Shown piece after piece: positions 12,661-42,556 of a stretch of 64,000 nt of DNA. Each line of letters opens with the position of its first letter. The first letter of the stretch is position 1. Below the pieces are notes generated by a model, which was not told the DNA's origin, did not search any database, and saw only the letters and a list, made by a program, of their open reading frames with translations. Source of the stretch: a virus; the IMG/VR virus record IMGVR_UViG_3300031857_007891, positions 5,673 to 69,672 of that record; one strand, 5' to 3'. The position numbers were made by a program, and so were the translations under genes.

Positions 12661-14831
12661 TGGATAATCAGACTAGAAGGATATTGCTTGAGAGAGTAAA
12701 GGCTTCTGGTTTCCCAGGGTCAATACTAGATGTATTTCAGAACCCTACTATTCTAGATGAGTATACGGCTCAACAGCAACAACAGTTAATAGTAGCTCAA
12801 ACTCCACAAGAGCAAGAGCAAGGTCTACGTCCTGCACATGCAGCAGGTAATGTTGGGCAGTCTATGGTCTTCCCTGACGTACAACCTAACCAAAGCTTTA
12901 ACACAGTAGGGATGAAGATCCCTATTGACATTAATAAGGTTGACAATCAAGGTAACTTAGTAGAATCTTATAAAGCTGTACCCCCAGGAATTCAAAACCT
13001 ACCTACAGGACCTAATAGTGGGATGGTAATAGAAACTCCTGCTGAAGGATATAAAACTGGGGGAGTAAAAAAGTATCAGACAGGAGACTTTAGAACTACT
13101 CCTGCTAATTTACCTTGGCTAGGAACTAAAGGGCAGGTACTAACAGAAGAAGAACAAGAAGAAAAACTTTTAGATAAAAAGTTTGGTATAGGTCCAACAG
13201 TAGATAAAGCAGAAGCAATTAAAGCTAAAGAGACAATACAAAGAACAAAACGTATTGAAACTCCGCTTCCTTCAGGAGCTATAACTCCAACTATGGGGCC
13301 AGTTGAATTTGCTCTGATGGCACCAGTAGCTGGAGCATCTGCTATGAGAGCAGCACCAATGATTGGATCAGCATTAAATACATCTATAGCAGGAGTACAA
13401 GGGTTAACAGTAGGTAATGCATTAGGTGCCGGATTTGCTTCTGATGCATTAGTTAATAGATTACCACAGATTCCAGGACAACTCAGCAGAGGAGAATATG
13501 CTGATGCTGCTATTAATGCTGGTACAGGTGTACTAGACTTATACGGGGCAGGTATGCTTAGACCTATTTCCAGAATGATTAGACCTACTTATAAAGGAGC
13601 TAGTCCTAAAGAGAAATTATACGAGACAGATTTTGAGGAGGTAAAGAATGCAGATGGATATGTAAGTGGTACATATGTTCCAGATTATTACACAGATTAC
13701 ACAAATGAGAACTTTAGAATGTATAGATCGAATCAGTTACCTGACCCTCCTCAATTTATAGATATTGGAGACCTTGGTACTAGTGCTCCTCGTAATACTT
13801 TCAAGAAGTTTACAAACAAATCTGGATTAACTAAAGAAGAAGCTCTTACACGAGTTACTGATAAAGACAAAGATGTTATCTCTAAAATGTCTGAAACAGA
13901 ATTTCAAAATAGTGTATTAAAACCTAATGGAGAGATTGTTCAATACGAGCAAGGATCTTTAATGGATGAATTTTCTGGTAAACAAAGTGTAGTACCTATG
14001 ACTCCAAAAGCTTACACAGAAGAGTTCAACTCTAAAATAGATCTTCTTAATGATATTATTGCTCAAAGAAATAAATCAGGAGTACAATATAAAGTCAAGG
14101 AGTTAACTGAGGATGGTAGATTAATCTTTGAAACACCAGAGCAAACAGTTCCAAGGCAATTAACAGCTAAACAAAAAGAAAATATAGAATGGTTTACTAA
14201 AGATGCTGAAGACTGGGCAGTGAATAAAGGGGGATTAGTAAAAAAAGAAAAAGGATGGGTATATACAAATCCAAATGTTCATCATGATGATTTTTTTAAA
14301 ACTAAAGAAGAAGCTATTCAATCTATAAGAGCTGAAATAACTAGAATACAAACTCCTAAAACAATAGGAGGTCAATCTTCTTGGGGAGTAGGTATTAAGT
14401 CTGGTCAATGGAGAGGAGATGTAAAAGACATTGCAAATACTGATTACTTTAGAAGTATTCCTGGGTTAGAAATGAGAAATACTACTCAATCTGTATTTGC
14501 AGACTCTACTCCTAGAAAAGGCTCAGGGGCTTATGAAGCTATTAATGAGTATCTAAAAAAGATAGACCTAGGGAGAGTAAAACCAGGATTTAACTCTCAG
14601 ACAGAATTCTCAAGAGGAGCATGGGAGAATTTTATTAATTCAGGAAGAGCAGTAGGATTTTATGGCAATCCCAGCACTGTATATGGAACTATGAAAACCA
14701 TACTTCCTCCTGCACTTGTAGTAGGAGCAGCAGCTGCCCAAGAAAAGAAACTAACTGGAGGCACTAAAACCTATCTAAAAGGTGGATTAAAGAACAGAGT
14801 GCTATACAATAAAGCTAAGTATAAAAGATAA
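12660..14831 (+). CDS. multidomain virion-associated protein: DUF192-like N-terminus, GG motifs, hydrophobic helices, GNAT-like C-terminal domain
   Basis: VAQTPQEQEQGL..SMVF..SF...MKIPIDI..D..G.LV..VIETPA resembles DUF192; RKGSGAYEAI...S.GAWE.F..SG.A resembles GNAT motifs A/B. Confidence 0.6.
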   Translation: MDNQTRRILLERVKASGFPGSILDVFQNPTILDEYTAQQQQQLIVAQTPQEQEQGLRPAHAAGNVGQSMVFPDVQPNQSFNTVGMKIPIDINKVDNQGNLVESYKAVPPGIQNLPTGPNSGMVIETPAEGYKTGGVKKYQTGDFRTTPANLPWLGTKGQVLTEEEQEEKLLDKKFGIGPTVDKAEAIKAKETIQRTKRIETPLPSGAITPTMGPVEFALMAPVAGASAMRAAPMIGSALNTSIAGVQGLTVGNALGAGFASDALVNRLPQIPGQLSRGEYADAAINAGTGVLDLYGAGMLRPISRMIRPTYKGASPKEKLYETDFEEVKNADGYVSGTYVPDYYTDYTNENFRMYRSNQLPDPPQFIDIGDLGTSAPRNTFKKFTNKSGLTKEEALTRVTDKDKDVISKMSETEFQNSVLKPNGEIVQYEQGSLMDEFSGKQSVVPMTPKAYTEEFNSKIDLLNDIIAQRNKSGVQYKVKELTEDGRLIFETPEQTVPRQLTAKQKENIEWFTKDAEDWAVNKGGLVKKEKGWVYTNPNVHHDDFFKTKEEAIQSIRAEITRIQTPKTIGGQSSWGVGIKSGQWRGDVKDIANTDYFRSIPGLEMRNTTQSVFADSTPRKGSGAYEAINEYLKKIDLGRVKPGFNSQTEFSRGAWENFINSGRAVGFYGNPSTVYGTMKTILPPALVVGAAAAQEKKLTGGTKTYLKGGLKNRVLYNKAKYKR

Positions 14832-14861
14832 ATTTATACTTTTTAACTATAAGTAAACCAA

Positions 14862-14869
14862 TACCTTTG
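14862..14869 (+). promoter_or_regulatory. -7 promoter element TACCTTTG, 5 nt before the scaffold ATG
   Basis: Exact TAnnTTTG in an intergenic gap. Confidence 0.65.
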
Positions 14870-14874
14870 TATAT

Positions 14875-16032
14875 ATGGCAACCAAACAGAACGAAGAAAA
14901 GCTAAGTATTTCAGACATTACATTCGACGATTTTATCGGGGATGGTCTAGAAACAAAAGAAAATGAAAGTGAAAGTGCTTCTAACGAACTTGATAACGAT
15001 TCTAAGAAAAGGTCTCCTAAGAATGAAGACCTGGACGAAGAAGATGTCAACTCGGAAGAAGATTCTGATGAAGACGATGACGAGGAAGGAGAGGAAGAAT
15101 CTCCTAGACCGTCTAGAAAAAATTCAAAAGAAGAACAAGACGACGATGATGTAAATGAAGATAACTCTGACGAAGACTCAGAATCTTCAATTGCTCGGTC
15201 TATTGCAAAGGCATTAGGCTATGACCTTGAAAATACGTATGCTGATACTGAAGAAGGATTAGTAGAGTTTACTAAAGATATTGCTCAAAACATTGCTGAA
15301 GATCAAATTCAGGAGTTGTTTTCTCAATTCCCTTTAATTCAAAAGCATCTAGATTATGTTCTAGCAGGTGGAGACTCTGAACAATTCTTCCAGGCTTACA
15401 ATCCAGGAATGGACTACAGCCAAATGGAAGTTGATAAAGGAGATTCAAGAATGCAGAAGATGCTGATTACTGACTACTTCAAATCTAAAGGGCACGATGA
15501 GGAATTCATCAAAGATATGCTTGACGATTATGAAGATACTGGTAAACTCTATGATAAGGCTACTGTAGCTCAAAAACAACTTTCTGCTATTCAAACAAAA
15601 GAAAGAGAGCAGATGGTTGAGTTACAGAAGCAAAGACAACAAGAGATGCAGCAAAAGCAACAAGAATTCTGGGAGGGTGTTGCTAATACTATAGATGAAG
15701 GAAGAGAGTTCTCAGGGATTAAGATCCCAGAAAAAGAGAAAGGCAAATTCTTCGATTATATCTCTGCCCCTGTAAATAAACAGGGAAATACTAAAAGAGA
15801 TATGGACTATAATAATGCCCCACTAGAAACTAAATTGGCAATTGACTACCTGTTATATAAGGGATTCAACTTGTCTGAAATCATAACTACTAAGGCTAAG
15901 ACTGAAAGTGCTAGAAACCTTAGAGATAGAATTCAGACAGGTCAGGAGAAACTTAGAAACCAAGGTATGGTAGATAAGAAAATAAAGAAATTCGATCCAG
16001 ACCAACTGGATGTAAAGAGGCTGTTTGAATAA
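14875..16032 (+). CDS. putative capsid scaffolding protein
   Basis: Very acidic low-complexity N-terminus, coiled-coil C-terminal half, directly upstream of MCP. Confidence 0.75.
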   Translation: MATKQNEEKLSISDITFDDFIGDGLETKENESESASNELDNDSKKRSPKNEDLDEEDVNSEEDSDEDDDEEGEEESPRPSRKNSKEEQDDDDVNEDNSDEDSESSIARSIAKALGYDLENTYADTEEGLVEFTKDIAQNIAEDQIQELFSQFPLIQKHLDYVLAGGDSEQFFQAYNPGMDYSQMEVDKGDSRMQKMLITDYFKSKGHDEEFIKDMLDDYEDTGKLYDKATVAQKQLSAIQTKEREQMVELQKQRQQEMQQKQQEFWEGVANTIDEGREFSGIKIPEKEKGKFFDYISAPVNKQGNTKRDMDYNNAPLETKLAIDYLLYKGFNLSEIITTKAKTESARNLRDRIQTGQEKLRNQGMVDKKIKKFDPDQLDVKRLFE

Positions 16033-16069
16033 AACTCAGACAACAATTAACTTTTAAAATTATAGAATC

Positions 16070-17494
16070 ATGGCTCTAATGCAAGTTTTGAAAACGTACT
16101 ATAACGATGCACAAATGACCGACACTAATTCGTTGGTTAATGCACTTATGGAACGTCCCGCGGAGTTGTCTCCGATCATTACTCACTTGGCTGGTCGTGA
16201 AGAAAAGAAATTCCCTCTCTCCTTCCTTACCGAAGGAGTTGGTAATACTCGTTCTATCGATCGCTATGAGTACGAATATCGTGTTAAGACACACGAAATT
16301 AATGTCCGTCCTGTTATTGCAAGTTCAGGAACAGGTGGTGGTGGTGCTCCATTCACCGTTACTTTCCCTGACAAGTGGTTTATCTTCCCTTACACCTTGG
16401 TGTCTCAGTCTGGTGTTCTCGCTCGTATTATGACCGAGCCAGTTGCTGATGGTGCTGGTTGGAAGTACACTTTGAAATTGGTTTCTCCTGATGCTGCTGC
16501 TTTGTCTTCAGCTGCAGGTGGTGACTTGGCTGCAGGTGCTCTCTGGGGTATGTTGTATGCTAACGTGGGTATTGACTTCTCACGTGGTAATGCATCTAAC
16601 TGGACTGCTCCTGGTCTTGTTCGTTCTAAGATTGGTACTATTCGTAAATCTTACCACTTCTCTGGAAATGCTAAAGACTATGTAGCTCAGTTCGAATTGC
16701 CTTTGAAAGAAGGTTCTAAGACTAAATTGTGGATGGATTACGAAGAGTACCGTCACATGATTAAGTTCAAGGAAGAGTGTGAAATGTACTACTGGTATGG
16801 TCAGAAGACTCACGATGCTAATGGTGTTAGCACTATGCTCGATGAGAACGGTCAACCTGTAGTATCTGGTCCTGGTTTGCTTGAGCAGATCATCAACAAA
16901 GATTCTTACTCAACTCTTACTCAAGCTAAGATTGAAGAAGTAATTGGTGACTTGTTCTATGGTATGACTGATGCTACTGATAAGCAAGTGACTTTGTACA
17001 CTGGTATCGGTGGTGCTCGTGAATTTGACCGTGCACTTAAGACTTACTATAGTGGCAACCAATATCTGCAGACCACTCAACCTACGTTCATCACTGGTAG
17101 CGGTCGTAACCTCGGTATTACTGGTTACTTCACTAGTTACGATCACGTAGATGGTCACAGAGTTAATGTAGTTAAATCTCCTTTGTTTGATCACGGTCCT
17201 GTGGCTCAAGCTTCTAAGAAGCACCCAGTATCTGGTCTTCCATTGGAATCATATCGTATGGTGTTTGTTGACCAATCTACTTATGATGGTGAAAACAACC
17301 TCCAAATGGTAAATAAGAAAGGTCGTGAAATGATGCGCTGGTGTGTAGCTGGTTCTGTAGTTCCAAAAGGATTTACAGGCAACGACACTCGTGCTAGTGA
17401 CATTGACGGTGCATCTGTTCATATGTTGAAGACTGCTGGTGTTTTGCTTCGTCGTTTTGACACTAGCATTGATCTTCAGTGTATTGCATCGTAA
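16070..17494 (+). CDS. major capsid protein (crAss-like)
   Basis: 474 aa; GPGLLEQI, LYTGIGG..EFD, HPVSGLPLESYRM motifs typical of crAss-like MCP; strong CGT/GGT codon bias; followed by a terminator. Confidence 0.92.
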   Translation: MALMQVLKTYYNDAQMTDTNSLVNALMERPAELSPIITHLAGREEKKFPLSFLTEGVGNTRSIDRYEYEYRVKTHEINVRPVIASSGTGGGGAPFTVTFPDKWFIFPYTLVSQSGVLARIMTEPVADGAGWKYTLKLVSPDAAALSSAAGGDLAAGALWGMLYANVGIDFSRGNASNWTAPGLVRSKIGTIRKSYHFSGNAKDYVAQFELPLKEGSKTKLWMDYEEYRHMIKFKEECEMYYWYGQKTHDANGVSTMLDENGQPVVSGPGLLEQIINKDSYSTLTQAKIEEVIGDLFYGMTDATDKQVTLYTGIGGAREFDRALKTYYSGNQYLQTTQPTFITGSGRNLGITGYFTSYDHVDGHRVNVVKSPLFDHGPVAQASKKHPVSGLPLESYRMVFVDQSTYDGENNLQMVNKKGREMMRWCVAGSVVPKGFTGNDTRASDIDGASVHMLKTAGVLLRRFDTSIDLQCIAS

Positions 17495-17514
17495 TTTGTG
17501 TTTGGTTTGCAATA

Positions 17515-17543
17515 AAAAGGGGGGGTACCCAATCCCCCCTTTT
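17515..17543 (+). terminator. intrinsic terminator after MCP
   Basis: AAAAGGGGGG-gtacccaat-CCCCCCTTTT inverted repeat. Confidence 0.85.
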
Positions 17544-17605
17544 AAAACTATAAAATTGAAGGTTATTCTTTATCCTTCAGTACTAATTAATAAAAAGAAC
17601 TTATT

Positions 17606-18412
17606 ATGGAAAGAAAAGTAATTGTTAGAAGAAAAGAGGTTCTTAACCATCTCCCAAAAGAGATTAGAGCAGGAGCCAAAGTGAAACTAGGGTCAATTTT
17701 TGTTGACCGTCTCCCACTCAAAGGAGTTGATGGAGAAGAAGAGCAAAAACTCTTGAAAAGAGTAATTGACGTTGCGGCAGGACACCCTGAATTTGGACCG
17801 AAAGCAAAAGACTTTTGGGCAAGTTTAACTCTCAGAGTTCCATTTGAAGGAGTAGAATTAGATATTTCTATCGACGCAAATGGAGAACCAGTTAACGCTA
17901 TGGATTACATATACTGGAAATGGTGTATGAAACATAGACATGTAGCTATGACTGAAGAGGAAATGAAACTAGATGCAAACAAAAGATTTTACATCTACGA
18001 TCCTCAGAAAGATCTACTTAAACGTAGTGAAAAGGTACAGGTTAAAAAGGAAGCTGACAAAGAGTTTATCAAGGTGTCAATGGAAGAGAGTAAGATGCAG
18101 ATGCTTCTTAGAGTTCTAACAGGAGGAGATCCTGATAGATTATCTAAGATAGAAATCGAAAACACTCTCTATGATTATAAGGAAAAGAATCCTGAGAGAT
18201 TCTTGAAGTATTCACTTGATACTAACCTTGAAGTTAGATTTGAAATCGAGGATATGATTGCAAAATCAATTCTTAGAAAAATCGGAAATCAGGTTATCTA
18301 TGAAGATGAGACAATTGGAGAGGATATGAAAGATACAATCACCTACTTCAAGAACAAGAAGAACTCAGGTATAGTAAATATATTGAGAGCAAAACTAAAA
18401 GAAGTATCATAG
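17606..18412 (+). CDS. conserved crAss-like protein downstream of MCP, 268 aa
   Basis: Long ORF; FW..L....P, P.N.MDYI.W, FYIYDP motifs; position in the head module. Confidence 0.8.
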   Translation: MERKVIVRRKEVLNHLPKEIRAGAKVKLGSIFVDRLPLKGVDGEEEQKLLKRVIDVAAGHPEFGPKAKDFWASLTLRVPFEGVELDISIDANGEPVNAMDYIYWKWCMKHRHVAMTEEEMKLDANKRFYIYDPQKDLLKRSEKVQVKKEADKEFIKVSMEESKMQMLLRVLTGGDPDRLSKIEIENTLYDYKEKNPERFLKYSLDTNLEVRFEIEDMIAKSILRKIGNQVIYEDETIGEDMKDTITYFKNKKNSGIVNILRAKLKEVS

Positions 18413-19593: not shown

Positions 19594-19632
19594 TAATTCA
19601 AATAATGTGTTTAACGCCTAAATTAATAAAAA

Positions 19633-20634: not shown

Positions 20635-20648
20635 TCTTAATTAAATTG

Positions 20649-20676: not shown

Positions 20677-20701
20677 TATTATCTTTACAAAAACTACTGA
20701 A

Positions 20702-23611: not shown

Positions 23612-23612
23612 A

Positions 23613-25330: not shown

Positions 25331-26461
25331 ATGAAGCAGCACTTGTTGATAGAGACATTAAAGGATAAACAGGGTTACCTTAAATCAGGGCCGACCAAAG
25401 TTTCTCAAATATTTAATGTCTCTATCGATAATGCTGTTAATGCTATCAGAGAAGCTAAAAGACAGCTAAAGCTAGATAATAGCAATAGCAGTGATAACAG
25501 AATAACAGAGTTTGAAAACTATCTGGCAGAAAACGGAATTGAAAGAGATAGTGTAACATCTGTTAAGTTCTGGCAGACAATGAAAGGAGAACAACGGTTC
25601 TCTGTGGTAACTAAAGATGACAAAGCCTCTATTGAGGAGATAAAGAAAGAGATTGAGGAATTTGCTACGATATTCAGTCCGACTGTATTCAAGCAATCTC
25701 CCCCATTCCAAGAAAAAGATGGGGTAGCTTATGAGATATCTCTTCCTGATATTCACTATGGTAAACTCACTGAGCTTAGCATAGAAGCAGCAGAAGAGCA
25801 GTTCATGAGCACTATTCATAACTTAGTGGAAAAAGCTAAGGGATTAGATATTGAGAAGTTCATCCTTCCTATCGGGAATGACGGGATGAACTCTGAAGGG
25901 ATGAGGCTTACTACAACCAAAGGCACCTTTCAGCATGACTCAATAGGATGGAGAGAGAGCTTTCAGGGATATTGTATGCTAATGACTAGAGCTATTGACT
26001 ATCTAAAAGCTAAAGCTCCAGTCCAAATAGTAGTTGTATCAGGGAATCACGATTTTGAAAGAATGTTTTATGCCGGAGATTTCATCAAAGGATGGTATAG
26101 AAATGATAAGAATGTTGTTGTAGACAACAGCATGGAGAGTAGAAAGTATGTAGAGTACGGAGTAAACATGATAATGTATACTCACGGGGATAAGGAAAGA
26201 CCAAGTGAAATGCCACTGATTATGGCAACTGAGCAACCAGAGATGTTTGCCAGATGCTCAGTTAGAGAGGTGCACTGTGGTCACTTACATAAGGAAATGG
26301 TCAATGAGTACCGTGGAATTAAAGTAAGATTTATCCCCTCCATTTGTGCTAATGATGACTGGCACAAAACTATGGGATACTCAGCTATTAGAACAGGCCA
26401 GGCTTATATCTGGAGTAAAACTAATGGACTAGAAGGCTATCTACAAACTATTGTAAAATGA
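25331..26461 (+). CDS. calcineurin-like metallophosphoesterase
   Basis: PDIHYG, GND, GNHD, HGD, GHLH metal-binding motifs. Confidence 0.9.
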   Translation: MKQHLLIETLKDKQGYLKSGPTKVSQIFNVSIDNAVNAIREAKRQLKLDNSNSSDNRITEFENYLAENGIERDSVTSVKFWQTMKGEQRFSVVTKDDKASIEEIKKEIEEFATIFSPTVFKQSPPFQEKDGVAYEISLPDIHYGKLTELSIEAAEEQFMSTIHNLVEKAKGLDIEKFILPIGNDGMNSEGMRLTTTKGTFQHDSIGWRESFQGYCMLMTRAIDYLKAKAPVQIVVVSGNHDFERMFYAGDFIKGWYRNDKNVVVDNSMESRKYVEYGVNMIMYTHGDKERPSEMPLIMATEQPEMFARCSVREVHCGHLHKEMVNEYRGIKVRFIPSICANDDWHKTMGYSAIRTGQAYIWSKTNGLEGYLQTIVK

Positions 26462-26768: not shown

Positions 26769-27479
26769 ATGACCTTAGATGAGATTGCATATAATCTATT
26801 AAATTCTTTTAGGGGAGGTAGGTCTTCTCAAGATGAGACTATATCAATAGATCAGATCAAGTTTAACATTAAGCACTATCGTGCTGTATTCATTCGTAGA
26901 GACTATGCTAGAAATGGACTAGTTACTAGGCACTTGGAGCAGGATCTTAGATGCATTGAACTAGAGAAGGTAGACCTATCTAAATGCTGTGGGATAACCT
27001 TAAACTGTCCTGCCTACAGGAGTGTGAAGAGAATCCCTAGAACTGTGAGATTTAACTTCGAAGAAGCTATCACATATGTAGGGGATATAACAGGATTAAA
27101 GAGATTTCAAATAATTAAACCATATGAAGTAAACTACTTGTCAGCTGATAGGTATACTGGAAAGAATACTAAGGCTTACATGATTGAGGATTACTTATAT
27201 GTAATAAATTCAGATGCAGACTTTGTCAATATTAGAGGGATATTTGAAGACCCTGAAGAGGCTCTTAAGTTTACGGATTGTAACGGCACTCCTTGTTATA
27301 CTGATGATTCTCCCTTTCCTATGCCGATGGACATGGTGCAGGCTGTTACCCAGGGCATGATAAACGGAGAATTAAGACTATTAGCAGGCACATTCTCGGA
27401 TACTTCCGCAGATAGAAGTCAAGATAGTCCTAATAGTATCCCACAAAATAATCAACAAGGCAATAGCAAAGAACAATAA
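26769..27479 (+). CDS. ring / head-tail adaptor protein
   Basis: MTLDEIAY..Q.L.C.EL.KVD...C..YLY...V.IRGIFEDP..D..FP pattern of crAss-like ring proteins. Confidence 0.75.
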   Translation: MTLDEIAYNLLNSFRGGRSSQDETISIDQIKFNIKHYRAVFIRRDYARNGLVTRHLEQDLRCIELEKVDLSKCCGITLNCPAYRSVKRIPRTVRFNFEEAITYVGDITGLKRFQIIKPYEVNYLSADRYTGKNTKAYMIEDYLYVINSDADFVNIRGIFEDPEEALKFTDCNGTPCYTDDSPFPMPMDMVQAVTQGMINGELRLLAGTFSDTSADRSQDSPNSIPQNNQQGNSKEQ

Positions 27480-27499: not shown

Positions 27500-27766
27500 A
27501 TGGCATCACCAGCATGGCAACGATCAGAAGGTAAGAACCCAAAAGGGGGATTAAATGCCAAAGGCAGGGCATCTTACCGTGCTGCTAACCCAGGCTCTAA
27601 ACTTGGAGCCCCACAACCTAAAGGAGGAAGCCGACGTAACTCCTTCTGTAACAGGATGTGTGGCATGAAATCTAAGCTTACATCAAGCAAAACTGCAAAC
27701 GACCCAAATTCAAGAATAAACAAGTCTCTTCGCATCTGGAAATGTGGGAGCTGCTCAAACTGGTAA
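27500..27766 (+). CDS. small basic phage protein (DUF6321-like)
   Basis: AWQRSEGKNPKGGLNAKGRASY...RRNSFC.RM.GMK...DPNSRINKSLR.W.C, a widespread phage family. Confidence 0.8.
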   Translation: MASPAWQRSEGKNPKGGLNAKGRASYRAANPGSKLGAPQPKGGSRRNSFCNRMCGMKSKLTSSKTANDPNSRINKSLRIWKCGSCSNW

Positions 27767-27767: not shown

Positions 27768-27998
27768 ATGAAAAACTTAGAATTTGACGATAACATGACT
27801 CACCAACTTGAATGGATCGGACTTAATGCAATATGGGCAGGATGGACCGTGGCAATGATGTCCAATGCTATAACATGGGGACTAGGAATTGTAGGGGGTA
27901 TAACCCTGATTTGGTTCAACATAGAACGTGCTCTAACTGCTAGAAGACAGAGAGCTATGTACGATAAAAAACTACAAGAGAATGAAGAAAATGCTTAA
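27768..27998 (+). CDS. small membrane protein (holin-like)
   Basis: Hydrophobic WIGLNAIWAGWTVAMM and ITWGLGIVGGITLIWF, then a charged tail; ATG at 27768. Confidence 0.6.
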   Translation: MKNLEFDDNMTHQLEWIGLNAIWAGWTVAMMSNAITWGLGIVGGITLIWFNIERALTARRQRAMYDKKLQENEENA

Positions 27999-28566
27999 AA
28001 GAGCTGATGGCTCAAAAAGTCAAAGAGGTCTCTGGGATAATATTAGAGCTAAAGCTGCATCTAATAAGAAAGCTGGGAAGAAAGGTAAAGCTCCTAGCAA
28101 AGCTATGCTTGAACAAGAAAGAAAAATTAAAAAAGAAGAAGATATGAAATCAATGTATAAAAAAGGTGGCAATAAAAAAAATGCCATGAAAAACACTAAA
28201 AAAGAGAAAGACTCTTACATGCTTGAAAATATAGAGCTAGACTTCGAAAAAGAATCCATGGGAATGGGGGGAAAGATGAAGTATAAATCTGCTGGTTTTC
28301 CCGATCTTAACAAGGATGGAGAAACTACTTTTGCTGATGTACTAAAAGGCAGAGGAGTTGATATGAAGAAGAGTGGTGGTAAGTCTATGGAGCCAGGTGG
28401 TGGTGGAAGATTTGCTGCAATGGTCTCAGGTCTTAAAAAAGAAGGTAAATCAGAAGGTTCTGCTAAAGCTATTGCCGCTTCTATCGGAAGAAAGAAGTAT
28501 GGTAAGTCTCGTTTTCAGGAGATGGCTGCTGCAGGAAAGAAGAAGATGGGTGGAAAGAAAAAGTAA
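27982..28566 (+). CDS. Lys/Gly/Met-rich basic protein of concatenated short phage motifs
   Basis: GLWDNIRAK, FPDLNKDGETTFADVLKGRG (EF-hand-like), GGGGRF..AIAASIGRKKYG, separated by KxGG motifs. Confidence 0.75.
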   Translation: MKKMLKRADGSKSQRGLWDNIRAKAASNKKAGKKGKAPSKAMLEQERKIKKEEDMKSMYKKGGNKKNAMKNTKKEKDSYMLENIELDFEKESMGMGGKMKYKSAGFPDLNKDGETTFADVLKGRGVDMKKSGGKSMEPGGGGRFAAMVSGLKKEGKSEGSAKAIAASIGRKKYGKSRFQEMAAAGKKKMGGKKK

Positions 28567-29084: not shown

Positions 29085-29978
29085 ATGGTATACAAGTTAA
29101 CATCCAGTAAGAGCATCATTAGAAAAATAATGAGAGATCTAAAACCACCCACAGATAACTGGGTGGATGACTCTATTGAATGGATGGGGGAAGCACTTGA
29201 GCATATTGGCTCAGGTCCACAGCTTGTAGAGAAGTCAAAGGTACTTTCAATCAGCAATTATAGAGTAGAGCTCCCTGCCGATTTGTATCAAATTAATCAA
29301 GTGGCAATTAGTAACAATACTAATCCTTCAATTACCACAGAACTTACTGAACTCCTCAATCAAGTAAAACAGTTAAATGCTCAGATAGTCTCTGATCCAA
29401 ATGATGCTATTAGCTATAACTATCAACTGAGAGAATTGAATGCTAGGATATTAGTTCTTGAGAATATTTATATGAATAGTGGGGAGCCTATGGCTGCTCT
29501 TCAATACAATACTGGCACTTTCCCACAGTCTGACTGTGAGGAATGTGAGAATAAGTTTGGGTCAGTAAAGCATACTTACTTCGTAGATGGTGGGTACGTT
29601 AAGACTTCATTTGAGACTGGGGCAATCTGTATAAGCTATAAAGCCTTTGATACTGATGATGACTGCTTCCCAATGATCCCAGATGATATTAGCTTTAAAG
29701 AAGCCCTATTCTGGTACTCATATAAGCAAATGTTGCTTGGTGGATACACTCCAGCAATCAATGGAATTGACTACAACTTTGCAGATGCTAAGTGGAAGTT
29801 CTATTGCACACAAGCTAGAAATCAATCTAAGTATCCAAGCATCGATAAGTACGAATCATTTATGAACCAATGGGTTCGTCTTGTACCTAACTTGAATAGA
29901 CATTCAAACTTCTTTGAGAACTTAGGTACCAGAGAGACTTTAGATAGAGGAAGATATACTAACTACGGAATACTATAA
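29085..29978 (+). CDS. tail tubular / ring protein (P22 gp4-like position)
   Basis: IEWMGEAL.HIG, LPADL, TSFETG.I.ISY.A..TD...P.IPD, W.FYC.QA motifs; directly before the muzzle gene. Confidence 0.75.
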   Translation: MVYKLTSSKSIIRKIMRDLKPPTDNWVDDSIEWMGEALEHIGSGPQLVEKSKVLSISNYRVELPADLYQINQVAISNNTNPSITTELTELLNQVKQLNAQIVSDPNDAISYNYQLRELNARILVLENIYMNSGEPMAALQYNTGTFPQSDCEECENKFGSVKHTYFVDGGYVKTSFETGAICISYKAFDTDDDCFPMIPDDISFKEALFWYSYKQMLLGGYTPAINGIDYNFADAKWKFYCTQARNQSKYPSIDKYESFMNQWVRLVPNLNRHSNFFENLGTRETLDRGRYTNYGIL

Positions 29979-35782: not shown

Positions 35783-35783
35783 T

Positions 35784-38700
35784 ATGGCTTTCTGTAATAA
35801 TCAATATCCTGATCAAGGGACTAATACCCCAAATGCTGCTGTAGGTTTTAACTCTGGTACTGTCACTATTGAGACAGAAGGTATTGATATTACTTATCCT
35901 ACTATAGTAATTACTGACGGAAATTTAGGATTTACTCCAAGAGAATGGTTTGGAGCTAACTTAATTGGAGCAAATATATTTGGTCTTACTTTCACGGCAT
36001 CTGAAACAGCCTGGAGACTTACTACCAATACATATGCAGCAGGACCTGCATTTAATGGTACTGATAATGAATTTTCAACTATTGATAAAGCTGGCTTCAA
36101 TCTTTGTAGAGCTGGATTCTTATATAAACCAGCTTGTATAAGCAAAATCAATGAGTGGTTAGATTCGGATGAAGCAGTCAAACAAATAGGTAGTGGATGG
36201 AGAGTTGCAACAGAAACAGACTTTAATGAGTTGCACAGAGTAATAGGTTCTCAAAATGCAGTATATAAAGTTAGAACTAATGCACCTACAACTAGTACTA
36301 CAAGTACTACATTATGGTCTACTTTGAGTACTGCAACACCAGCAGGTGTAACTTTAAATTACTCAGGATTTAATGCTTTTGCTGCTGGTGCAAGAACTAT
36401 TACCGGTACAGGGGTAGCAGGAGGTATTAACCAGCAAGCTAGATTAGCAGCATGGTGGCTAGGTCCTTCAAATGGAGATCCAAACGGAACAGATAATACT
36501 TTTACAATTAATTCTGTAATTAACACAAAATCAGTATCAGCTTGGTATCTAAATGAAAATACTCCCCCAAGTACAGGAGCCTTGATGAATTTAAGGTTTA
36601 ATACTAGTGCAGTTTTAGAAGTAGGTTCTGCTAAAGTATCCAATGACCCTCTTGCTGGTAACTCAATACGTTTAGTAAGAGATTATGTTAATCCTACATG
36701 TACTGACTTAACAACATCAAATGATGCATTAAACCGATCAATAACTTACGACTCAATTTCACTTGGAGGAGTTACATATCCTACTCTTTGGATTGGGGCT
36801 CAGAAATGGGTAGCTGCAAATCTTATAGGAAATTTTGGTAATATACCATACACAGAATCTCAAAGTGCTTGGAATAATCTTTCAGCAGAAGGTTACTCTT
36901 CTTACAATGCACCTAATGATTTATTAGGATGTTATAATGGGCATTTATATAATGGATATGCAGCTACAGCTATTAATAACAGACTTATAGCTACATCATC
37001 TCTTTATAGAGTACCATCAACAGACGACTTTAACGAACTGCTTGCAACATTAGGACTAAGTGCTGCTACTGCTGGAGGTGAGTTAAAAACAAACTCTATA
37101 TCTACAACTGAAACTTACTGGAATGATCCTAATACTGCAGCAAATAATAGCTCTGGATTTTCAGGGATAGGTGCAGGAATTCGTGGGATAACAGGAGCTA
37201 CTGCAAATTATTCTGATTTAAAAATAAGCACTAGCTTTTGGACAATAACCGCTGGAGCGTCAGCTGGACTTCAACAATCTAGAAGTCTTAGTAAAGATAC
37301 CGATGCATTTAATCTATCAGATCAAGATATAAAGTATGGATTTTCAGTAAGATTGCTTATACCTAGTATCCCAGTTAACGTATTTTTTGCTGGGGCAGGT
37401 TTAGGTACAGTTCAAATACTAGGATCAGATAGTGCTATTACTAATTCAAGTTCTGGTGGATATACTATACGATTAAGAAATGGGGAGAATGCAATTATTA
37501 CAGCAACTCCTAATCCTAACTCTGTAGTTACTTCTATTGCAGCTGCAACAGTAGTAGGGAGCACATCAGTTGCTATTACAGATGGACAAATTGCTGCTTT
37601 ATCAGAAGCCGTTAATGTCACTGTTACATTTGGCATATTTGTCCCCCCATCAATTCCTAATGAATGGGAGAAACAGAATTTATGTATAGGGGATACAGTA
37701 GTATTATCAAACTATAACTGTGACATTGTAAATACTGTATCCTACATAGTAATGGATGGAGTATCAATTAATCAATTTACTACAAATCCATCTGGAGATC
37801 CTTGCACAATATCTTTTGTAATTCCGTCTGGGGTTAGCATTGGGGAGACTGTCAGTGTAAACTTTTATGGGGGAGGTGGAACATTACTAGAGTCTCTTCC
37901 ATTCTCGGTTAAGATTTGTGGGGGTGATTTTTTTGGTCCTGATGCTAATATCGGAGCTCCTGCTTGCTCTACTATAACTTATACTAATAGTGACTGTTCT
38001 GTTATTCAGAACTTTGATCAACTATATGTAGATGGGGTACTAGCAACATATGCAATTGTATCTAATACTCCTCCTTGTCAGATAGTCATAGAGATTCCTG
38101 AATTACAAGGAAAGTTTCCTAAGCCAGTAAAAATAGATTTCTATTCTGATGGAAGACCTTCTTTTACAGAAACCTATCTCATAACAGCAAACTGTGATGG
38201 GGTAGGTGATGGAGAAGTTGTTAACCCTAGCTGTTTGGAACTATTAGAGACAGACAATCTAACATTTGTAGACTGTCAGACAGGACAGGTAGTTCCATTT
38301 GAAGAGGGAACTGTCTTTAAAAGAACTGGGTGGACAATCTCATTTTCTACTGAACTTGGGGTATGGGAGAGTAGACATACTTATTATCCGTACATGTATA
38401 TGTACAACTCAAAAGCTATGTACACTCTGTATAGGGAGTTCGGGATTGACTCATTCTGGAAACATACAGAAAGAGCTAAGAGACTTCTTTACTATGGAAG
38501 ACCCCTGCAGGATAACTTTGAACTAGAAGTTATCTTCCCTGGTGAAGATAGAAGAACTACTACAGGAACCACAACTACTAGAAACTCTAATAAGATATTC
38601 TCAGCCTTTGCAATATCAGCTGACTCTTTTGAAGATGGCTTAGACATGATGAGGAATAAGTATAATCTTCCATTCACGGAGTTCTATGTTTACAATAGCT

Positions 38701-39038
38701 TCCAAATATCTGGACTAGTAAACATGGAGTATCTAAACAATGTTAGAAGAGTAGATGGAAGCTGGGTTATTAATGAGTTCAGAGATCTCAGCAGATATGG
38801 AACTAGCAGTGATGGACTTGCAACACTATCTCCTGGTTTAGGGGAACAGATGTTCCTAGAAGAAGGAAGAATAAACATTACTTATATAAGCTCTACAAAA
38901 GAATGGTATGACCAGAGAAAGTTTGTAGATAAGTGGATAGGATTACGATTAATTTATAACCCATCTACTACCAATTCTAATGTAGATTTAGTATATTTGT
39001 ACAATGTAGTCTTTAACTCTAGACAGTCGTTTAGATAA
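35784..39038 (+). CDS. two Fib_succ_major (FISUMP)-like domains, Ig-like repeats and the C-terminal part of the muzzle protein
   Basis: IGAQKWVAANL..GHLYN..RVPS.DDF..AGGELK..SGFS..GAG.R..FW..GFSVRL (two copies); C-terminal WTISFS..W.SRH.Y.P, W.INEFRD, KFVDKW..LRL. Confidence 0.8.
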   Translation: MAFCNNQYPDQGTNTPNAAVGFNSGTVTIETEGIDITYPTIVITDGNLGFTPREWFGANLIGANIFGLTFTASETAWRLTTNTYAAGPAFNGTDNEFSTIDKAGFNLCRAGFLYKPACISKINEWLDSDEAVKQIGSGWRVATETDFNELHRVIGSQNAVYKVRTNAPTTSTTSTTLWSTLSTATPAGVTLNYSGFNAFAAGARTITGTGVAGGINQQARLAAWWLGPSNGDPNGTDNTFTINSVINTKSVSAWYLNENTPPSTGALMNLRFNTSAVLEVGSAKVSNDPLAGNSIRLVRDYVNPTCTDLTTSNDALNRSITYDSISLGGVTYPTLWIGAQKWVAANLIGNFGNIPYTESQSAWNNLSAEGYSSYNAPNDLLGCYNGHLYNGYAATAINNRLIATSSLYRVPSTDDFNELLATLGLSAATAGGELKTNSISTTETYWNDPNTAANNSSGFSGIGAGIRGITGATANYSDLKISTSFWTITAGASAGLQQSRSLSKDTDAFNLSDQDIKYGFSVRLLIPSIPVNVFFAGAGLGTVQILGSDSAITNSSSGGYTIRLRNGENAIITATPNPNSVVTSIAAATVVGSTSVAITDGQIAALSEAVNVTVTFGIFVPPSIPNEWEKQNLCIGDTVVLSNYNCDIVNTVSYIVMDGVSINQFTTNPSGDPCTISFVIPSGVSIGETVSVNFYGGGGTLLESLPFSVKICGGDFFGPDANIGAPACSTITYTNSDCSVIQNFDQLYVDGVLATYAIVSNTPPCQIVIEIPELQGKFPKPVKIDFYSDGRPSFTETYLITANCDGVGDGEVVNPSCLELLETDNLTFVDCQTGQVVPFEEGTVFKRTGWTISFSTELGVWESRHTYYPYMYMYNSKAMYTLYREFGIDSFWKHTERAKRLLYYGRPLQDNFELEVIFPGEDRRTTTGTTTTRNSNKIFSAFAISADSFEDGLDMMRNKYNLPFTEFYVYNSFQISGLVNMEYLNNVRRVDGSWVINEFRDLSRYGTSSDGLATLSPGLGEQMFLEEGRINITYISSTKEWYDQRKFVDKWIGLRLIYNPSTTNSNVDLVYLYNVVFNSRQSFR
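38992..38999 (+). promoter_or_regulatory. -7 promoter element TATATTTG upstream of the cargo gene block
   Basis: Exact TAnnTTTG 50 nt before ATG 39050, inside the end of the upstream gene. Confidence 0.45.
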
Positions 39039-39049
39039 CCTTTACTCCG

Positions 39050-42000
39050 ATGACTAAAAAAACTTACTTTAAGGGAAAGAAGAAATCAGTTAAACCTAAG
39101 AAATATCAATTTGCTGGGTTTGAGGAAGCTATGCAAATAGATAATACTGGTTACCTTAATAAACTTTACAATCCTAACTATTACGGATCTCAACAGGCTG
39201 TAGACACGACTGCTACTAAGGAGAACATATCTAAGAATGTACAGTTAGGTCAAACAGCTGCTATAAATATACAAGGGGCTAAGGAAAATACTGCTGATGC
39301 AATAACTAGATTACAGCAAGTTAAAACAGATGCAGAAGCTGCAGAAAAACAGCAGTTAACTGAAATGAATGAGGCTAGTAAGACACAAGCAGTAACTTCT
39401 GCTGGAGCTTCTCTTTTAACAGGATTGGGGGATATTGCTAAAACTTATCTTCCTGCAGCTGCAGCAAAAGCTTCTACTACTGCAGTAGCTAAGCCACCAG
39501 CAAATCTACTTACTAAGTTTGGGACACCTCCTAGTTCTAACGTAATGAATTTTAAAGTTCCTGGAGCAGAATCAATAGGTGAGCAAGGAGTTAAAAATAC
39601 AATAGGCTCGGCAACCTGGTCAACTCCTGGAGCCGCAGCTGCAGCAGCTGGTATTGGAATAGCTGCTAGTGTTGGGGGGTCTTTATGGGATAATTTATCA
39701 GAAGATGCTGATCCATATACTTATAGTAGAAAAGAAAAATGGGGGGATTGGGGAGGAAATATACTTTCTGAAACAGGTAAGTGGGGAGGTGTAGGAGCAA
39801 CGGTAGGTGGGCCTTTAGGAGCTTTAATAGGAGGAGTAGCTGGAGTAGGTATTGGAGCCTTTAAAGCTGCAAGAGAATCTAAACAAAATAAAAAAATGGC
39901 TAAGGAGATGACAGCTGAAAGAGATAGACAGCAAGCTGAGTATCGTAGATTAATGAATGAATACCAATCAAATTTAGACAAACAGCAAAGAGTCTATGAT
40001 TATAATAAGGCAAAGATTCAACAGAATATAGTTATGGGGGAAGAACAGTTAAGACAGAACAGACTTCAAGACTTAACAGAAAGTCAGTTATCTGGTAATA
40101 CTTCTATAGTTAAAACTGGAGGAAAAAGAAACTACTTTGGTAAAGGTGGGGTAAGTGTTCCAGGGGGACAAATTGTCCCTATAGGTGGAGGAGCTGTAGA
40201 GTTTGTTGGAAGAAAACATTCTCAAGGTGGAATTCTACTAGACCCACAAACTGAGGTAGAAGGTGGTGAAACTATGGACCAAGTTGCAATGAATGAATAT
40301 AAAGGTGGAGGTAAAATGAATGATTACTTCTTCTCAGCTTATCTTAAACTTGGGGGTAAGTCATTTGCTCAAAGACATAAAGAATTAATTAAGAGTGGAG
40401 CTGGCCAAGCAGCTATCCAAGAGTTAGCTAGAAAACAAGAAGAGGTAGCTTATAAGAATGGAGAGAAGGATAGAAGTCCAAAACAAATTGCTAAGTATGG
40501 TGGAGTTAGACAATATGCACCTGGTGGTCCTAAAGACGATACTGTCTCAATGGCTGAGTGGAAAGCAATGGATAAGAACCAAAGGTATAAATTAGTATAT
40601 GATTTAGCTGCAAAAGCAGGAGATCCAATGCCAGAAGTAACAGCAGCTCAATGGGCTATTGAAAGTGATTTTGGAAGAGCAATGACTGGTACGTGGAACT
40701 TTTTTGGGCAAACAACTAAAAGCAAAGATTCTACTAATTTAGCAACCCCAAGAGATCCTAGTGGTGGAAGTAAAAGGTTTAAAAATTATGAAAGCTTAGA
40801 AGATTCTGTTGCAGATCACGTTAACAGATGGTCACCAAAATATAAAGATGCAAAGAATCCTGAGGAGGCTTTAATGATGCTTGAAAATTATGGTGGAAAA
40901 GGTAGATATGCTGAAGGTTATCCAACCAAAGAGTTCCCAGAAGGAGATTGGAAAGCCTACGTAAAAAATACAAATAGCATTATAAAACAATATGATCCTG
41001 TAGTTAAAGCAAAACCTGCAGCTGCAGCACAAGCACAAGCTCAAGTTGATGGGCAACCTATGAGTGCTGCTGAGTATCAAAGATTGACTGCAGGCAGACC
41101 TCCTCTTCCTTCTGGAGCTGTTCAATCCACATCTAGTCCAATTGATTATGCTCTTTTAGGAACTGGTTTAGGTATTGCTAGGGGTACTGGAGCTCTTGCA
41201 GGATTTGTAGGAGGTGCTGCTAGAGATATGGTAGGTAATGCTACAAGGCCTACACCTGGTACAGTTACACCAAGAGCTGAGTTAGTAAGAATGCCACAAA
41301 CAGGTACAGGAGTAACACCTTTTGCACCAAATGGTCCAAACTGGACATTCTGGAAACCAGGTGTTGGTGGTCAAGCAACTACCCAAGGAGGTAAATTTCC
41401 TTTAATGGCTCCTGTTAAGGAGAGTGTAGGAAAACTTCCTGATGTTGCTACAGCTCAAAAAGCTGCTGAGTTTACTCCAACTCCATTTAGTGTAACTCCT
41501 GCCGCAGATGGTACAGCAGTAGATCCAGGAACAGAGGGGCCATTCCCACAGGATCCTGCAGAAAACCTTTCTAGTGCTACTACGTTAAACTATTCTTCAA
41601 AATTTGATCCTACTATATCTCTAAAAACTCCTCTTGAGTCTATAAAACCAGATATAAAAAAGAGTACAGAGCCTGACAGTAAACCAGAGTTTAATCCAAT
41701 GTATACAAAGCAGCAGATAAAGAATGCTAGAAGATTAGCTGCTTTTGGATTTTTATCTCAACTAGCAGCACCTACAGCAGCATTGTTTATGAAACCTAAA
41801 CTTGTAGGAGCTCCTCAAACTATTACTCCTGCATTGCTAGACGCTGCAATGGCTGCTAAGGCAGTAGGTCCAATGGTTACCCCTGGAACAGTTGCTGCTC
41901 AAAGACTTGGTAGAATAGCTCCGCAGACAGACAATATCCTTAATACAAATGCTGCTACTAAGCAGTTCATGGCTAACATGGGTGACCCATCTGCTATGGT

Positions 42001-42556
42001 TGGAATGATTGCTAGTGATACTAGAGCAGCAGAAGCAGAGAGAAAAGAAATGCAAAGAGCTCAAGAAATAAATACTCAGTTAGCTTCTGAAGAAGGTAAG
42101 ATTAAATTGCAGGCTAGTATGGCAAATCAAGATGCAAGCATGCAATCCCAGATAGCAAATCAAAGAAACATCAATGAAGCACAGAACAGATACTTTGATG
42201 TTCTTTCAAGAAATCAAGCTGCTCAGAATCAAGCTTATATAACTAATGCAGAGAATAAACTTAGAGCTGATTTAGCTAATGCAGATCTAAGAGCTGCTAA
42301 ACAAAATAGAGATATAGCAGCTCTATCAGTCATGGGAAGTAACATAGCTGGTGGGGTAGGAGATATATTCTCATATGCATCAGAAGAAGCAAAAGCTAGA
42401 ATAAATGCTGGGGAGACTGGAGTGTATGATAGAAACTTCAACTCATTGTTCCTAGGTAAGACTGGTGGTGCTAAAAAGAAAATGTACGGAGGTACTAACT
42501 CATATACATCAAGACTGGGAGATTTAAAATACAAACGAGCATTAAAAGTTAAGTAA
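39050..42556 (+). CDS. ejected cargo protein with Gly/Ala-rich membrane helices and GH73 (FlgJ/glucosaminidase-like) domain
   Basis: GGPLGALIGGVAGVGIG helices; G.KHSQGG..EVEGGE domain; AAQWAIESDFG..NFFG..FKNYESLEDS..DH..YA muramidase motifs. Confidence 0.8.
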   Translation: MTKKTYFKGKKKSVKPKKYQFAGFEEAMQIDNTGYLNKLYNPNYYGSQQAVDTTATKENISKNVQLGQTAAINIQGAKENTADAITRLQQVKTDAEAAEKQQLTEMNEASKTQAVTSAGASLLTGLGDIAKTYLPAAAAKASTTAVAKPPANLLTKFGTPPSSNVMNFKVPGAESIGEQGVKNTIGSATWSTPGAAAAAAGIGIAASVGGSLWDNLSEDADPYTYSRKEKWGDWGGNILSETGKWGGVGATVGGPLGALIGGVAGVGIGAFKAARESKQNKKMAKEMTAERDRQQAEYRRLMNEYQSNLDKQQRVYDYNKAKIQQNIVMGEEQLRQNRLQDLTESQLSGNTSIVKTGGKRNYFGKGGVSVPGGQIVPIGGGAVEFVGRKHSQGGILLDPQTEVEGGETMDQVAMNEYKGGGKMNDYFFSAYLKLGGKSFAQRHKELIKSGAGQAAIQELARKQEEVAYKNGEKDRSPKQIAKYGGVRQYAPGGPKDDTVSMAEWKAMDKNQRYKLVYDLAAKAGDPMPEVTAAQWAIESDFGRAMTGTWNFFGQTTKSKDSTNLATPRDPSGGSKRFKNYESLEDSVADHVNRWSPKYKDAKNPEEALMMLENYGGKGRYAEGYPTKEFPEGDWKAYVKNTNSIIKQYDPVVKAKPAAAAQAQAQVDGQPMSAAEYQRLTAGRPPLPSGAVQSTSSPIDYALLGTGLGIARGTGALAGFVGGAARDMVGNATRPTPGTVTPRAELVRMPQTGTGVTPFAPNGPNWTFWKPGVGGQATTQGGKFPLMAPVKESVGKLPDVATAQKAAEFTPTPFSVTPAADGTAVDPGTEGPFPQDPAENLSSATTLNYSSKFDPTISLKTPLESIKPDIKKSTEPDSKPEFNPMYTKQQIKNARRLAAFGFLSQLAAPTAALFMKPKLVGAPQTITPALLDAAMAAKAVGPMVTPGTVAAQRLGRIAPQTDNILNTNAATKQFMANMGDPSAMVGMIASDTRAAEAERKEMQRAQEINTQLASEEGKIKLQASMANQDASMQSQIANQRNINEAQNRYFDVLSRNQAAQNQAYITNAENKLRADLANADLRAAKQNRDIAALSVMGSNIAGGVGDIFSYASEEAKARINAGETGVYDRNFNSLFLGKTGGAKKKMYGGTNSYTSRLGDLKYKRALKVK

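Follow-up and report, generated by a model that had tools for sequence, protein, structure and literature searches.

A recurrent glycine-hinged peptide motif at module borders of three cargo-like protein families in uncultured crass-like phages

Few known phages are as abundant as the crAss-like phages, and a stretch of the genome of one of the latter is analysed here for a short peptide motif that recurs in three of its proteins. The stretch, hereafter the window, comprises 64,000 nucleotides (positions 5,673 to 69,672) of the IMG/VR virus record IMGVR_UViG_3300031857_007891, a contig of 69,672 bases with a CheckV completeness of 85%. Its source is an uncultured crass-like lineage, because the DNA of the window gives zero matches to GenBank phages and the identity of its capsid protein to any GenBank phage does not exceed about 30%. 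All 28 open reading frames (ORFs) of at least 150 amino acids (aa) in the window lie on the + strand. From the ring proteins onward the genes follow in the order ring protein 2, ring protein 1, a 1934-aa product (annotated from Pfam/PHROGs as a virion structural protein), a 1084-aa product, the 39050 gene, a 765-aa product and giants of 2336, 2503 and 1475 aa, and the gene order of the window agrees with that of the crAss001 record. The motif occurs in the products of three genes, designated by their first positions, namely 12660 (the post-portal gene), 27982 (encoding a small Lys/Gly-rich protein) and 39050 (encoding a likely homologue of the crAss001 cargo protein C1).

The consensus reads GG-hydrophobic-basic-K-[YF]-x-x-[GA]-G, with Pro and acidic residues often coming next; in other words, two Gly-Gly hinges enclose a Lys-Tyr/Phe core, and about 12-14 residues are conserved. 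Variants include KTGGVKKYQTAG and NGGWLDKYxDGG. A preliminary description, made from the letters of the window, had quoted a series of such strings as delimiting cassettes in the three proteins. All of these strings are found in the translations where it placed them, and the recurrent motif as a whole was confirmed and extends beyond the window to relatives. Taken singly, the main sites hold, whereas YKGGG (aa 417-421 of the 39050 protein) belongs to a variable loop inside a domain, and KSGG and KMGG are half-motifs.

Inside this genome, a pattern in the style of the preliminary description occurs 4 times in the three proteins, where shuffles average 0.09 and 1 of 2000 reaches 4 or more, and once in the remaining 48 ORFs (20,281 aa). 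A position matrix, read at 12 bits or more, gives 6 matches in the 51 ORFs; 100 shuffles average 0.24 and never exceed 2. Both patterns were picked after the data had been seen, and the weight of the evidence therefore rests on relatives. The string DKYGGNRYAPG in the 51887 gene, considered as an extra copy, scores 2.7 bits by the matrix and is probably due to chance.

The relatives are kin, and hit counts among them overstate the number of independent events. Homologues of the 12660 and 39050 proteins supplied the 133 distinct instances on which the matrix, of 14 columns, was built; neither the small-protein class nor the distant genomes (G001, G003 and G005) contributed to its training. The strict core [KRH][YF]xx[GA]G was observed 46 times versus 3.2 expected by shuffling in the post-portal class (58 unique proteins), 17 times versus 1.1 in the small-protein class (21 proteins) and 46 times versus 4.3 in the C1 class (23 proteins), a 10- to 15-fold enrichment in exactly the three classes named in the preliminary description. 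An apparent fourth class, the portal (23 versus 2.4), was discarded, its count reflecting a single inherited HFL[VI]AG site buried in the fold. With the matrix, 105 matches were found in 102 unique proteins of the three classes (1 in shuffles), versus 4 in everything outside these classes, 914 unique proteins with 320,658 aa (2 in shuffles). Seven whole crass-like genomes (586 ORFs) yield 26 matrix matches versus 1.3 in shuffles. These are spread over 15 ORFs, 11 in the three classes and 4 unclassified, of which G010 contributes a single small ORF and the others, all large, come from G001, G003 and G005.

Codon usage shows at which level the motif is maintained. Among 102 distinct instances, the Lys is encoded by AAA (50) or AAG (34) and the Tyr by TAT (47) or TAC (31), and the Gly positions by GGG, GGA and GGT. 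Selection on the motif acts at the peptide level, and a DNA-level recombination signal is ruled out by this codon diversity at conserved residues. Independent support for the motif comes from the occurrence of several distinct sites in three unrelated families, in two dialects and with varied codons. Judged by these comparisons, it is a real short linear motif of ejected cargo proteins in a large uncultured crAss-like group.

The C-terminal module of the 12660 protein has homologues that carry the second dialect, NGGWLDKY[NQ]DGGP. N-termini of the form M..NWLDKFDxGG and C-termini of the form ...GGWLDxxx occur there too. Searching with a DNA pattern that encodes GGWLDKYxxGG retrieved 52 stretches in viral contigs versus 3 in 596 Gb of bacterial genomes. 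The 3 bacterial matches all share one C-terminal context ('...AGGWLDKYGVGGFKY'), the 2 scanned with Pfam being tails of major facilitator superfamily transporters, and we take them as chance. All five sampled viral contigs with the GGWLDKY pattern encode a Crass_capsid major capsid protein, and their GGWLDKY-type ORFs lie 17-33 kb downstream of the capsid gene, approximately the place of the cargo genes in the window. By these pattern searches, the motif is specific to crass-like phages. The features of the window are collected in Table 1.

Table 1. Positions of the motif copies, associated domains and neighbouring genes in the window
Feature	Position in the window	Strand	Basis or remark
Large terminase	8407-10371	+	Pfam/PHROGs
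Portal protein	10447-12660	+	phrog_6547, E 3e-122
Post-portal polymorphic cargo-like protein, 723 aa	12660-14831	+	ORF and translation
DUF192-like region, aa 43-137, ending exactly at the first motif	12786-13070	+	Pfam PF02643
Motif copy YKTGGVKKYQTG, aa 131-142	13050-13085	+	Matrix, 22.5 bits
C-terminal tail motif LTGGTKTYLKGG, aa 698-709, then LKNRVLYNKAKYKR	14751-14786	+	Matrix, 16.7 bits
Major capsid protein (Crass_capsid)	16070-17494	+	Pfam/PHROGs
crass ring protein 2	26769-27479	+	Pfam/PHROGs
Small Lys/Gly-rich protein, 194 aa, 23% K, 14% G	27982-28566	+	Between the ring-2 and ring-1 genes; mini-modules
YKKGG, aa 59-63	28156-28170	+	Translation
GMGGKMKYKSAG, aa 95-106, then EF-hand-like loop FPDLNKDGETTFAD	28264-28299	+	Matrix, 13.1 bits
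KSGG half-motif, aa 130-133	28369-28380	+	Relatives keep K[TS]GGKSMEPGGGG
KMGG half-motif, C-terminal tail, aa 188-191	28543-28554	+	Translation
crass ring protein 1	29085-29978	+	Pfam/PHROGs
Likely homologue of crAss001 cargo protein C1, 1168 aa	39050-42556	+	Synteny and profile alignments
N-terminal motif KKYQFAG, aa 17-23, after a Lys-rich leader	39098-39118	+	Matrix, 24.7 bits
KTGGKRNYFGKGG, aa 355-367, just ahead of the conserved domain	40112-40150	+	pLDDT <50
Conserved 'EVEGGE' domain	40151-40492	+	331 representative clusters, E ≤0.001
KYGGVRQYAPGG, aa 482-493, between the conserved domain and GH73	40493-40528	+	Matrix, 19.5 bits
GH73 glucosaminidase module, aa 520-649	40607-40996	+	PF01832, 37.5 bits versus cut-off 30.2
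C-terminal tail motif KTGGAKKKMYGG, aa 1137-1148, then TNSYTSRLGDLKYKR	42458-42493	+	Translation
HEAYH zincin-like signature, aa 99-103 of the 2503-aa giant	52181-52195	+	Relatives keep GTEYHEA[YF]H
HEFSH signature, aa 223-227 of the 1475-aa giant	60076-60090	+	Conserved in relatives

The relation of the motif to folded domains is clearest in the 39050 protein, for which 41 homologues were found; 31 of them entered the alignment to which the following conservation refers. At the N-terminal copy, Y19 is invariant and K18 and G23 are nearly so; ahead of the EVEGGE domain, T356, G366 and G367 are nearly invariant; behind it, Y483, G484 and G485 are invariant, as are G1147, G1148, Y1152, S1154, R1155, L1156 and G1157 in the C-terminal tail. 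An AlphaFold2 model from 31 sequences is poor overall, with a mean predicted local distance difference test score (pLDDT) of 48. Its segments below pLDDT 50, which include aa 1-53, 334-367, 470-497 and 1094-1168, contain all four motif sites, and the GH73 module (74-90 in parts) and the helical parts have higher values than the motif segments. The earlier statement that the motifs fall at domain borders is thereby upheld, since the four sites all lie in coil below pLDDT 50 between folded parts and homology breakpoints are enriched at the motif (see below). Over 149 representatives of the EVEGGE domain, the strict core follows downstream in 69 of 144 testable cases versus 6.2% of random windows, and the usual site upstream is the half-site [YF]..TGG. 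In the C1 class, 15 of the 23 proteins carry a motif within their first 40 aa. As a separate observation, the Gly-zipper stretch at aa ~250-340 of the 39050 protein (window 39800-40070) gives weak profile matches, at E 0.0014 to an OmpA-family type IV secretion component and at E 0.025 to an N4 gp52-like ejection protein.

Alignments to crAss001 gp45, together with synteny, make the 39050 protein a likely homologue of C1. The 39050 family aligns with gp45 over C-terminal helices (hhalign, 82% probability, E 1e-5), its profile matches PDB chain 7qog_M at E 0.008, and the profile of the conserved domain aligns with gp45 at 57% probability and E 1e-4, with 38% identity over 93 columns, aa 381-487 corresponding to gp45 439-565. 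The two gp45-matching regions are collinear and neither is decisive by itself; the position of the gene, after the ring/muzzle genes and ahead of C2 and the RNA-polymerase-related giants, fits the C1 family. A single-sequence phmmer search of the protein against the PDB gave no match, its match in GenBank phages was restricted to the GH73 part, and tblastn with the conserved domain against GenBank phages gave none. According to PMC10172136, gp45 of crAss001 has its residues 214-245 on rings R1/R2, and the portal wing holds residues 425-552, the segment to which the conserved domain aligns. The motif-like sites of gp45 are FSAYGGP (208-214), AFGGWLNTQGG (425-435) and MFAYGG (559-564); both segments begin at or right after such a site, MFAYGG comes behind the domain, and the post-domain motif of the 39050 protein aligns to gp45 FAYGG.

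The 12660 protein consists of a conserved N-terminal head, two motif copies, hydrophobic Gly/Ala stretches, a C-terminal module and a basic tail. The gene behind the portal in relatives (80 loci) encodes 58 unique proteins of 83-1048 aa that have only the N-terminus and the C-tail in common: about 140 conserved first residues, then TGG[VIF][KR][KR][YF]x[TE][GA]G, then a variable middle, and the common tail RKRY[IF]xGGLKNRVLYN. G134 and G135 of the 12660 protein are invariant in 35 aligned sequences, and 22 of 39 post-portal proteins have an aromatic-GG among their final 45 aa. The PF02643 matches in the 12660 protein score 30.0 and 32.0 bits, just over the gathering cut-off of 27, and the family is detected at E ≤0.001 in 6 of 33 scanned post-portal proteins, 3 of them above the cut-off. 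In an AlphaFold2 model from 35 sequences, aa 44-150 fall below pLDDT 50 and aa 1-40 are the sole confident part. This last part (window 12660-12780) is a three-helix segment at pLDDT ~90 with invariant N3, R6, L10 and G17, and through these predicted helices the protein may contact the portal or some other component of the virion. The GNAT-like module named in the preliminary description is borne out neither by Pfam nor by the ESM Atlas; the ESM Atlas search with aa 300-700 of the 12660 protein returned no match.

The 27982 protein has no match to a Pfam or PHROG family, loose thresholds included. Its 21 relatives are mosaics of mini-modules, sometimes encoded in two ORFs, and at the site of aa 95-106 they read GGxKY[KA]xGGFPDL[NT]xDG. 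Terminal Gly pairs are frequent, 12 of the 21 ending in GG plus 1-4 residues. Where the gene is split, the second ORF begins M..MYKKGG, and the first ORF, like many single-ORF relatives, ends KMGGK.C; the split genes thus keep the motif at their ends, where a pure separator would be unneeded. In many copies among the split and single loci (L003, L004, L006, L007, L010 and L011), the chain closes with ...KMGGK[KN]C; the window copy has no such terminal Cys. The small protein shares a module pool with the C1 class, because the mini-module RGLWDNIRANKGSGK... is fused directly ahead of the C1 domain in P0178 and P0179. Right behind its motif copy, FPDLNKDGETTFADVLKGRG (aa 105-124, window 28294-28353) resembles a single EF-hand/dockerin-type calcium loop. 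Nearby, between the genes for ring protein 2 and the small protein, an 88-aa ORF (window 27500-27766) matches eight PHROG families at their C-termini, although these families differ widely in length (for example phrog_3477, E 4e-36); it is a widespread small C-terminal module, free-standing here. The structural block also contains a gene for an Mre11/SbcD-like DNA repair exonuclease (window 25331-26461; phrog_704, E 3e-56; weak Metallophos_2 match).

That the modules between motifs are exchangeable, as had been proposed, is borne out by the relatives. Up to the motif, P0006 resembles the 39050 protein; immediately past it the two part, with DUF2272 in the place of GH73. In the 41 homologues the module slot holds PF01832 in 7, PF10030 in 4 and nothing recognisable in 30. 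Extra modules bring extra motif copies: P0010 and P0017 have a second copy ahead of GH73 or DUF2272, the copies of P0031 flank an insert of several hundred residues, and P0013 has a tandem copy. Post-portal proteins contain GH73, phage lysozyme or YkuD in 6 of 33 scanned and none of these modules in the other 27; in the GGWLDKY group, LysM with YkuD, ART-PolyVal or His_Phos_1 were found in 5 of 39 viral fragments scanned. Combinations occur as well, DUF192 with GH73 or YkuD in L081, L039 and L041, and LysM with YkuD in L119, and in L142 a motif (aa 50) and a second one (aa 249) enclose a His_Phos_1 module (aa 76-215). BLAST homology breakpoints lie at most 10 aa from a strict motif in 17% of 104 cases (C1 class) and 12% of 139 cases (post-portal class) versus 2.5% at random.

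The preliminary description had read the motif as a di-glycine cleavage or capsid-loading signal. Its border position, the exchangeable modules, the missing prohead protease and the presence of HExxH signatures were upheld, and the GNAT-like module, the link between HExxH and motif and a cut after GG, in view of the Pro found there, were not. The two HExxH signatures are present in the 2503-aa and 1475-aa giants (window 51887-59398 and 59410-63837) and conserved in relatives; the HExxH regions match no Pfam family, and the N-termini of the giants no Pfam or PHROG family, loose thresholds included. Giants of the 44875 and 51887 types are fused in G010, G001 and G003 (4786, 4616 and 3914 aa), which places the HExxH signature mid-protein. 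The motif does not mark the junctions of these RNA-polymerase polyproteins, being absent within 120 aa of the junction in all three (best matrix score 0.6 bits), and a link between it and the HExxH domains is not seen. The search for proteases covered 5 genomes, of which four are complete. It revealed no classical prohead protease, Peptidase_S78 (PF04586), CLP_protease (PF00574) and Peptidase_S77 (PF03420) each being detected in 0 of 5, in agreement with the earlier remark; Peptidase_C48 (PF02902) was likewise found in 0 of 5, the adenain family itself (Peptidase_C5) not being searched, and MPTase-PolyVal (PF18818) in 0 of 5 at E up to 1, the neighbouring giants having bare HExxH only. Pro is the commonest residue after the GG (30 of 105 sites), a poor position for an endopeptidase cut.

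Because no protease was found in the 5 genomes, Pro often follows the GG and the fused giants have no motif at their junctions, a shared docking or positioning tag is preferred over cleavage, a passive hinge or a role after ejection, as a plausible reading that falls somewhat short of probable. The peptide would be a shared address or docking peptide recognised by a conserved virion part, the reader most likely being the portal or the tail-barrel lumen. The portal, which is 75-80% identical across relatives (80 loci) while their cargo proteins diverge far more, is a candidate receptor. The tag would set the register of unfolded cargo segments inside the particle, its Gly pairs would supply flexibility for threading, and any module between tags could ride along and be ejected; a cut after GG would not be the primary role. 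It is possible, albeit doubtful, that this portable tag of ~12 residues, read by the portal/tail lumen, is the address label of the crAss-like ejection apparatus, choosing what rides in the tail or near the portal and exits first.

Several points weigh against a docking tag. The RNA-polymerase-related giants are without the motif (core counts of 4 versus 3.0 and 0 versus 0.2 expected; best matrix scores 11.9, 3.6 and 4.5 bits), as is the 765-aa protein at the C2 position. Such giants are cargo in crAss001 too, according to PMC10172136, and the motif therefore cannot be a universal packaging signal. No enrichment of the strict core is seen upstream of the EVEGGE domain (13 of 128 versus 6.2% at random), and only about 1 breakpoint in 6 falls at a strict motif. 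The cultured phages with virion data, crAss001 and phi14:2, show only degenerate aromatic-GG sites; the case for placing the 39050 protein in the C1 family is of moderate strength, and the structural link to crAss001 is a weak likeness. We infer the binding partner, and AlphaFold2 gives the motif no structure.

A processing site, at which a protease (the zincin-like HExxH domain of a giant, an unrecognised phage protease or a host enzyme) would cut the proteins into separate virion-delivered enzymes and remove terminal leaders, much as capsid-targeting sequences are cut off by the prohead protease of T4, is an unlikely alternative. In its favour, the same conserved peptide stands between unrelated modules and close to termini, in L142 it precedes and follows His_Phos_1, the HExxH signatures are kept in relatives, and the 12660 gene, with the portal gene on one side and scaffold-like genes on the other, is where a protease is usually encoded. 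This account has to contend with the empty junctions of all three fused giants, the frequent Pro after GG, a conserved length of ~12-14 residues that exceeds most protease sites, the motif retained at the ends of separately encoded modules, and the failure to detect Pfam proteases or MPTase-PolyVal in the 5 genomes. DUF192, considered as the protease or reader of the motif, is absent in 5 of 5 GGWLDKY-dialect crass-like contigs and in crAss001, and hence cannot be the common enzyme. As to the literature, zincin-domain cleavage of crass cargo polyproteins is suggested in bioRxiv 10.1101/2020.03.07.982082, and processing by metallopeptidase domains of polyvalent proteins in PMC5512222; PMC7886860 mentions none of polyprotein, zincin, protease, peptidase and prohead. 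Against cleavage, crAss001 C1 is described as spanning tail and capsid in PMC10172136 and PMC10136315.

If the motif were instead a passive hinge or recombination joint, its Gly pairs would uncouple module folding for tail passage, and swaps at the motif would preserve it with no dedicated reader. The sites all lie in coil below pLDDT 50, breakpoints are five- to seven-fold enriched at the motif, and the 39050 protein and P0006 part just past it, all of which speaks for such a joint. However, plain linkers would not hold a Lys-Tyr/Phe core and fixed spacing over three unrelated families and two dialects, the codons vary at conserved residues, so that DNA identity for recombination is not the conserved thing, and copies at extreme termini join nothing; we regard this explanation, too, as improbable. 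A role after ejection, in which the aromatic, Lys and Leu residues of the motif would anchor at the host membrane interface, or the motif would bind a Bacteroidota envelope factor, and so keep cell-wall enzymes and the channel-forming C1 in place, would suit the flanked modules, which are mostly cell-wall enzymes (GH73, lysozyme, YkuD, LysM and DUF2272), the Gly-zipper membrane-like segments of C1 that resemble the N4 gp52-like ejection protein, and the lack of the motif in the cytoplasm-bound RNA-polymerase giants. It fits less well with ART-PolyVal and His_Phos_1, which are likely cytoplasm-targeted and are flanked as well, and with the different charges of the dialects (KKYQT versus WLDKY), a poor match for a single membrane-binding mode; we know of no host-side partner, and consider such a role quite unlikely. 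Chance, finally, would make the motif a by-product of Lys/Gly-rich low-complexity sequence. The small protein, with 23% Lys and 14% Gly, is expected to contain half-motifs such as KSGG and KMGG, and the strict core occurs per whole genome 3-6 times versus 2.2-3.4 expected; yet composition-preserving shuffles give 0-2 matrix matches versus 105, alignment positions are invariant, and copies are also found in distant genomes and in a family on which the matrix was not trained, so that chance is scarcely credible.

Being conserved and easy to recognise, the motif provides a sequence rule to spot cargo proteins and module borders in uncultured crass-like genomes, and explains the swapping of cell-wall enzymes and other effectors in and out of cargo proteins. 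The mechanisms by which capsids are assembled and packaging occurs in crAss-like phages are not yet established according to a 2023 review (PMC10136315), and the motif is a mutable handle on cargo positioning, threading or processing. If it is a loading tag, foreign proteins could be loaded into crass-like virions. If it is an address label, new injected enzymes could be gained simply by insertion between two tags, and a cargo-loading signal comparable to encapsulin loading peptides would be in hand for a tailed phage.

Peptides with comparable features are known from other systems. The adenovirus protease cuts at (M/L/I)XGG-X, and the core proteases of African swine fever virus and poxviruses at GG-X / AG-X. 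As at these sites, a Gly-Gly or Ala-Gly pair ends the conserved stretch here; unlike them, the motif has its hydrophobic residue one place further from the GG and often Pro next, in genomes where Peptidase_C48 was not detected (0 of 5) and the adenain family was not searched. The capsid-targeting sequence of T4 internal proteins and the cargo-loading peptides of encapsulins are short signals into an HK97-fold shell, with a proven receptor and, for T4, a proven cut. With these the motif has in common that unrelated proteins carry one and the same kind of conserved short peptide, either at a terminus or in a flexible linker; it differs in being also internal and multi-copy, in missing from the giants and the 765-aa C2-position protein, and in being known from sequence alone. 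Head proteins of the MuF / SPP1 gp7 type are encoded directly after the portal, have a conserved N-terminal head and variable C-terminal toxin or enzymatic modules, and are presumed to be packaged and ejected. The 12660 protein shares the place directly after the portal, the conserved head, the variable modules and the presumed packaging and ejection, and departs from this type in its DUF192-like head, its conserved C-terminal tail and its internal tag. MuF is mentioned in PMC5512222.

Polyvalent multi-domain proteins (PMC5512222) and crass cargo proteins (PMC10172136) are thus already known, whereas no description of the delimiting peptide was found in the papers searched. Polyvalent proteins (Iyer, Burroughs, Anand, de Souza, Aravind 2017, PMC5512222) are multi-module proteins with module shuffling, thought to be carried in the virion with the DNA; the word 'linker' has 0 occurrences in its main text. 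The combination of at least two unrelated effector modules typical of them is found here as well, GH73 beside the conserved domain in the 39050 protein and DUF192 with GH73/YkuD or LysM with YkuD in relatives, and ART-PolyVal modules are found in motif-bearing relatives as in polyvalent proteins; the differences are that MPTase-PolyVal is undetected here and that the modules are mostly cell-wall enzymes. The closest comparison is with gp45, the C1 of crAss001 (PDB 7QOG; Bayfield et al. 2023, PMC10172136), the passages of which consulted here do not describe the motif. gp45 has neither a strict K-[YF]xx[GA]G copy nor a GH73 module, but its gene takes the same place in the gene order, and like it the 39050 protein has a Gly-rich membrane-like N-terminal part, a conserved mid-domain and a helical C-terminal part, with aromatic-GG sites at equivalent segment borders.

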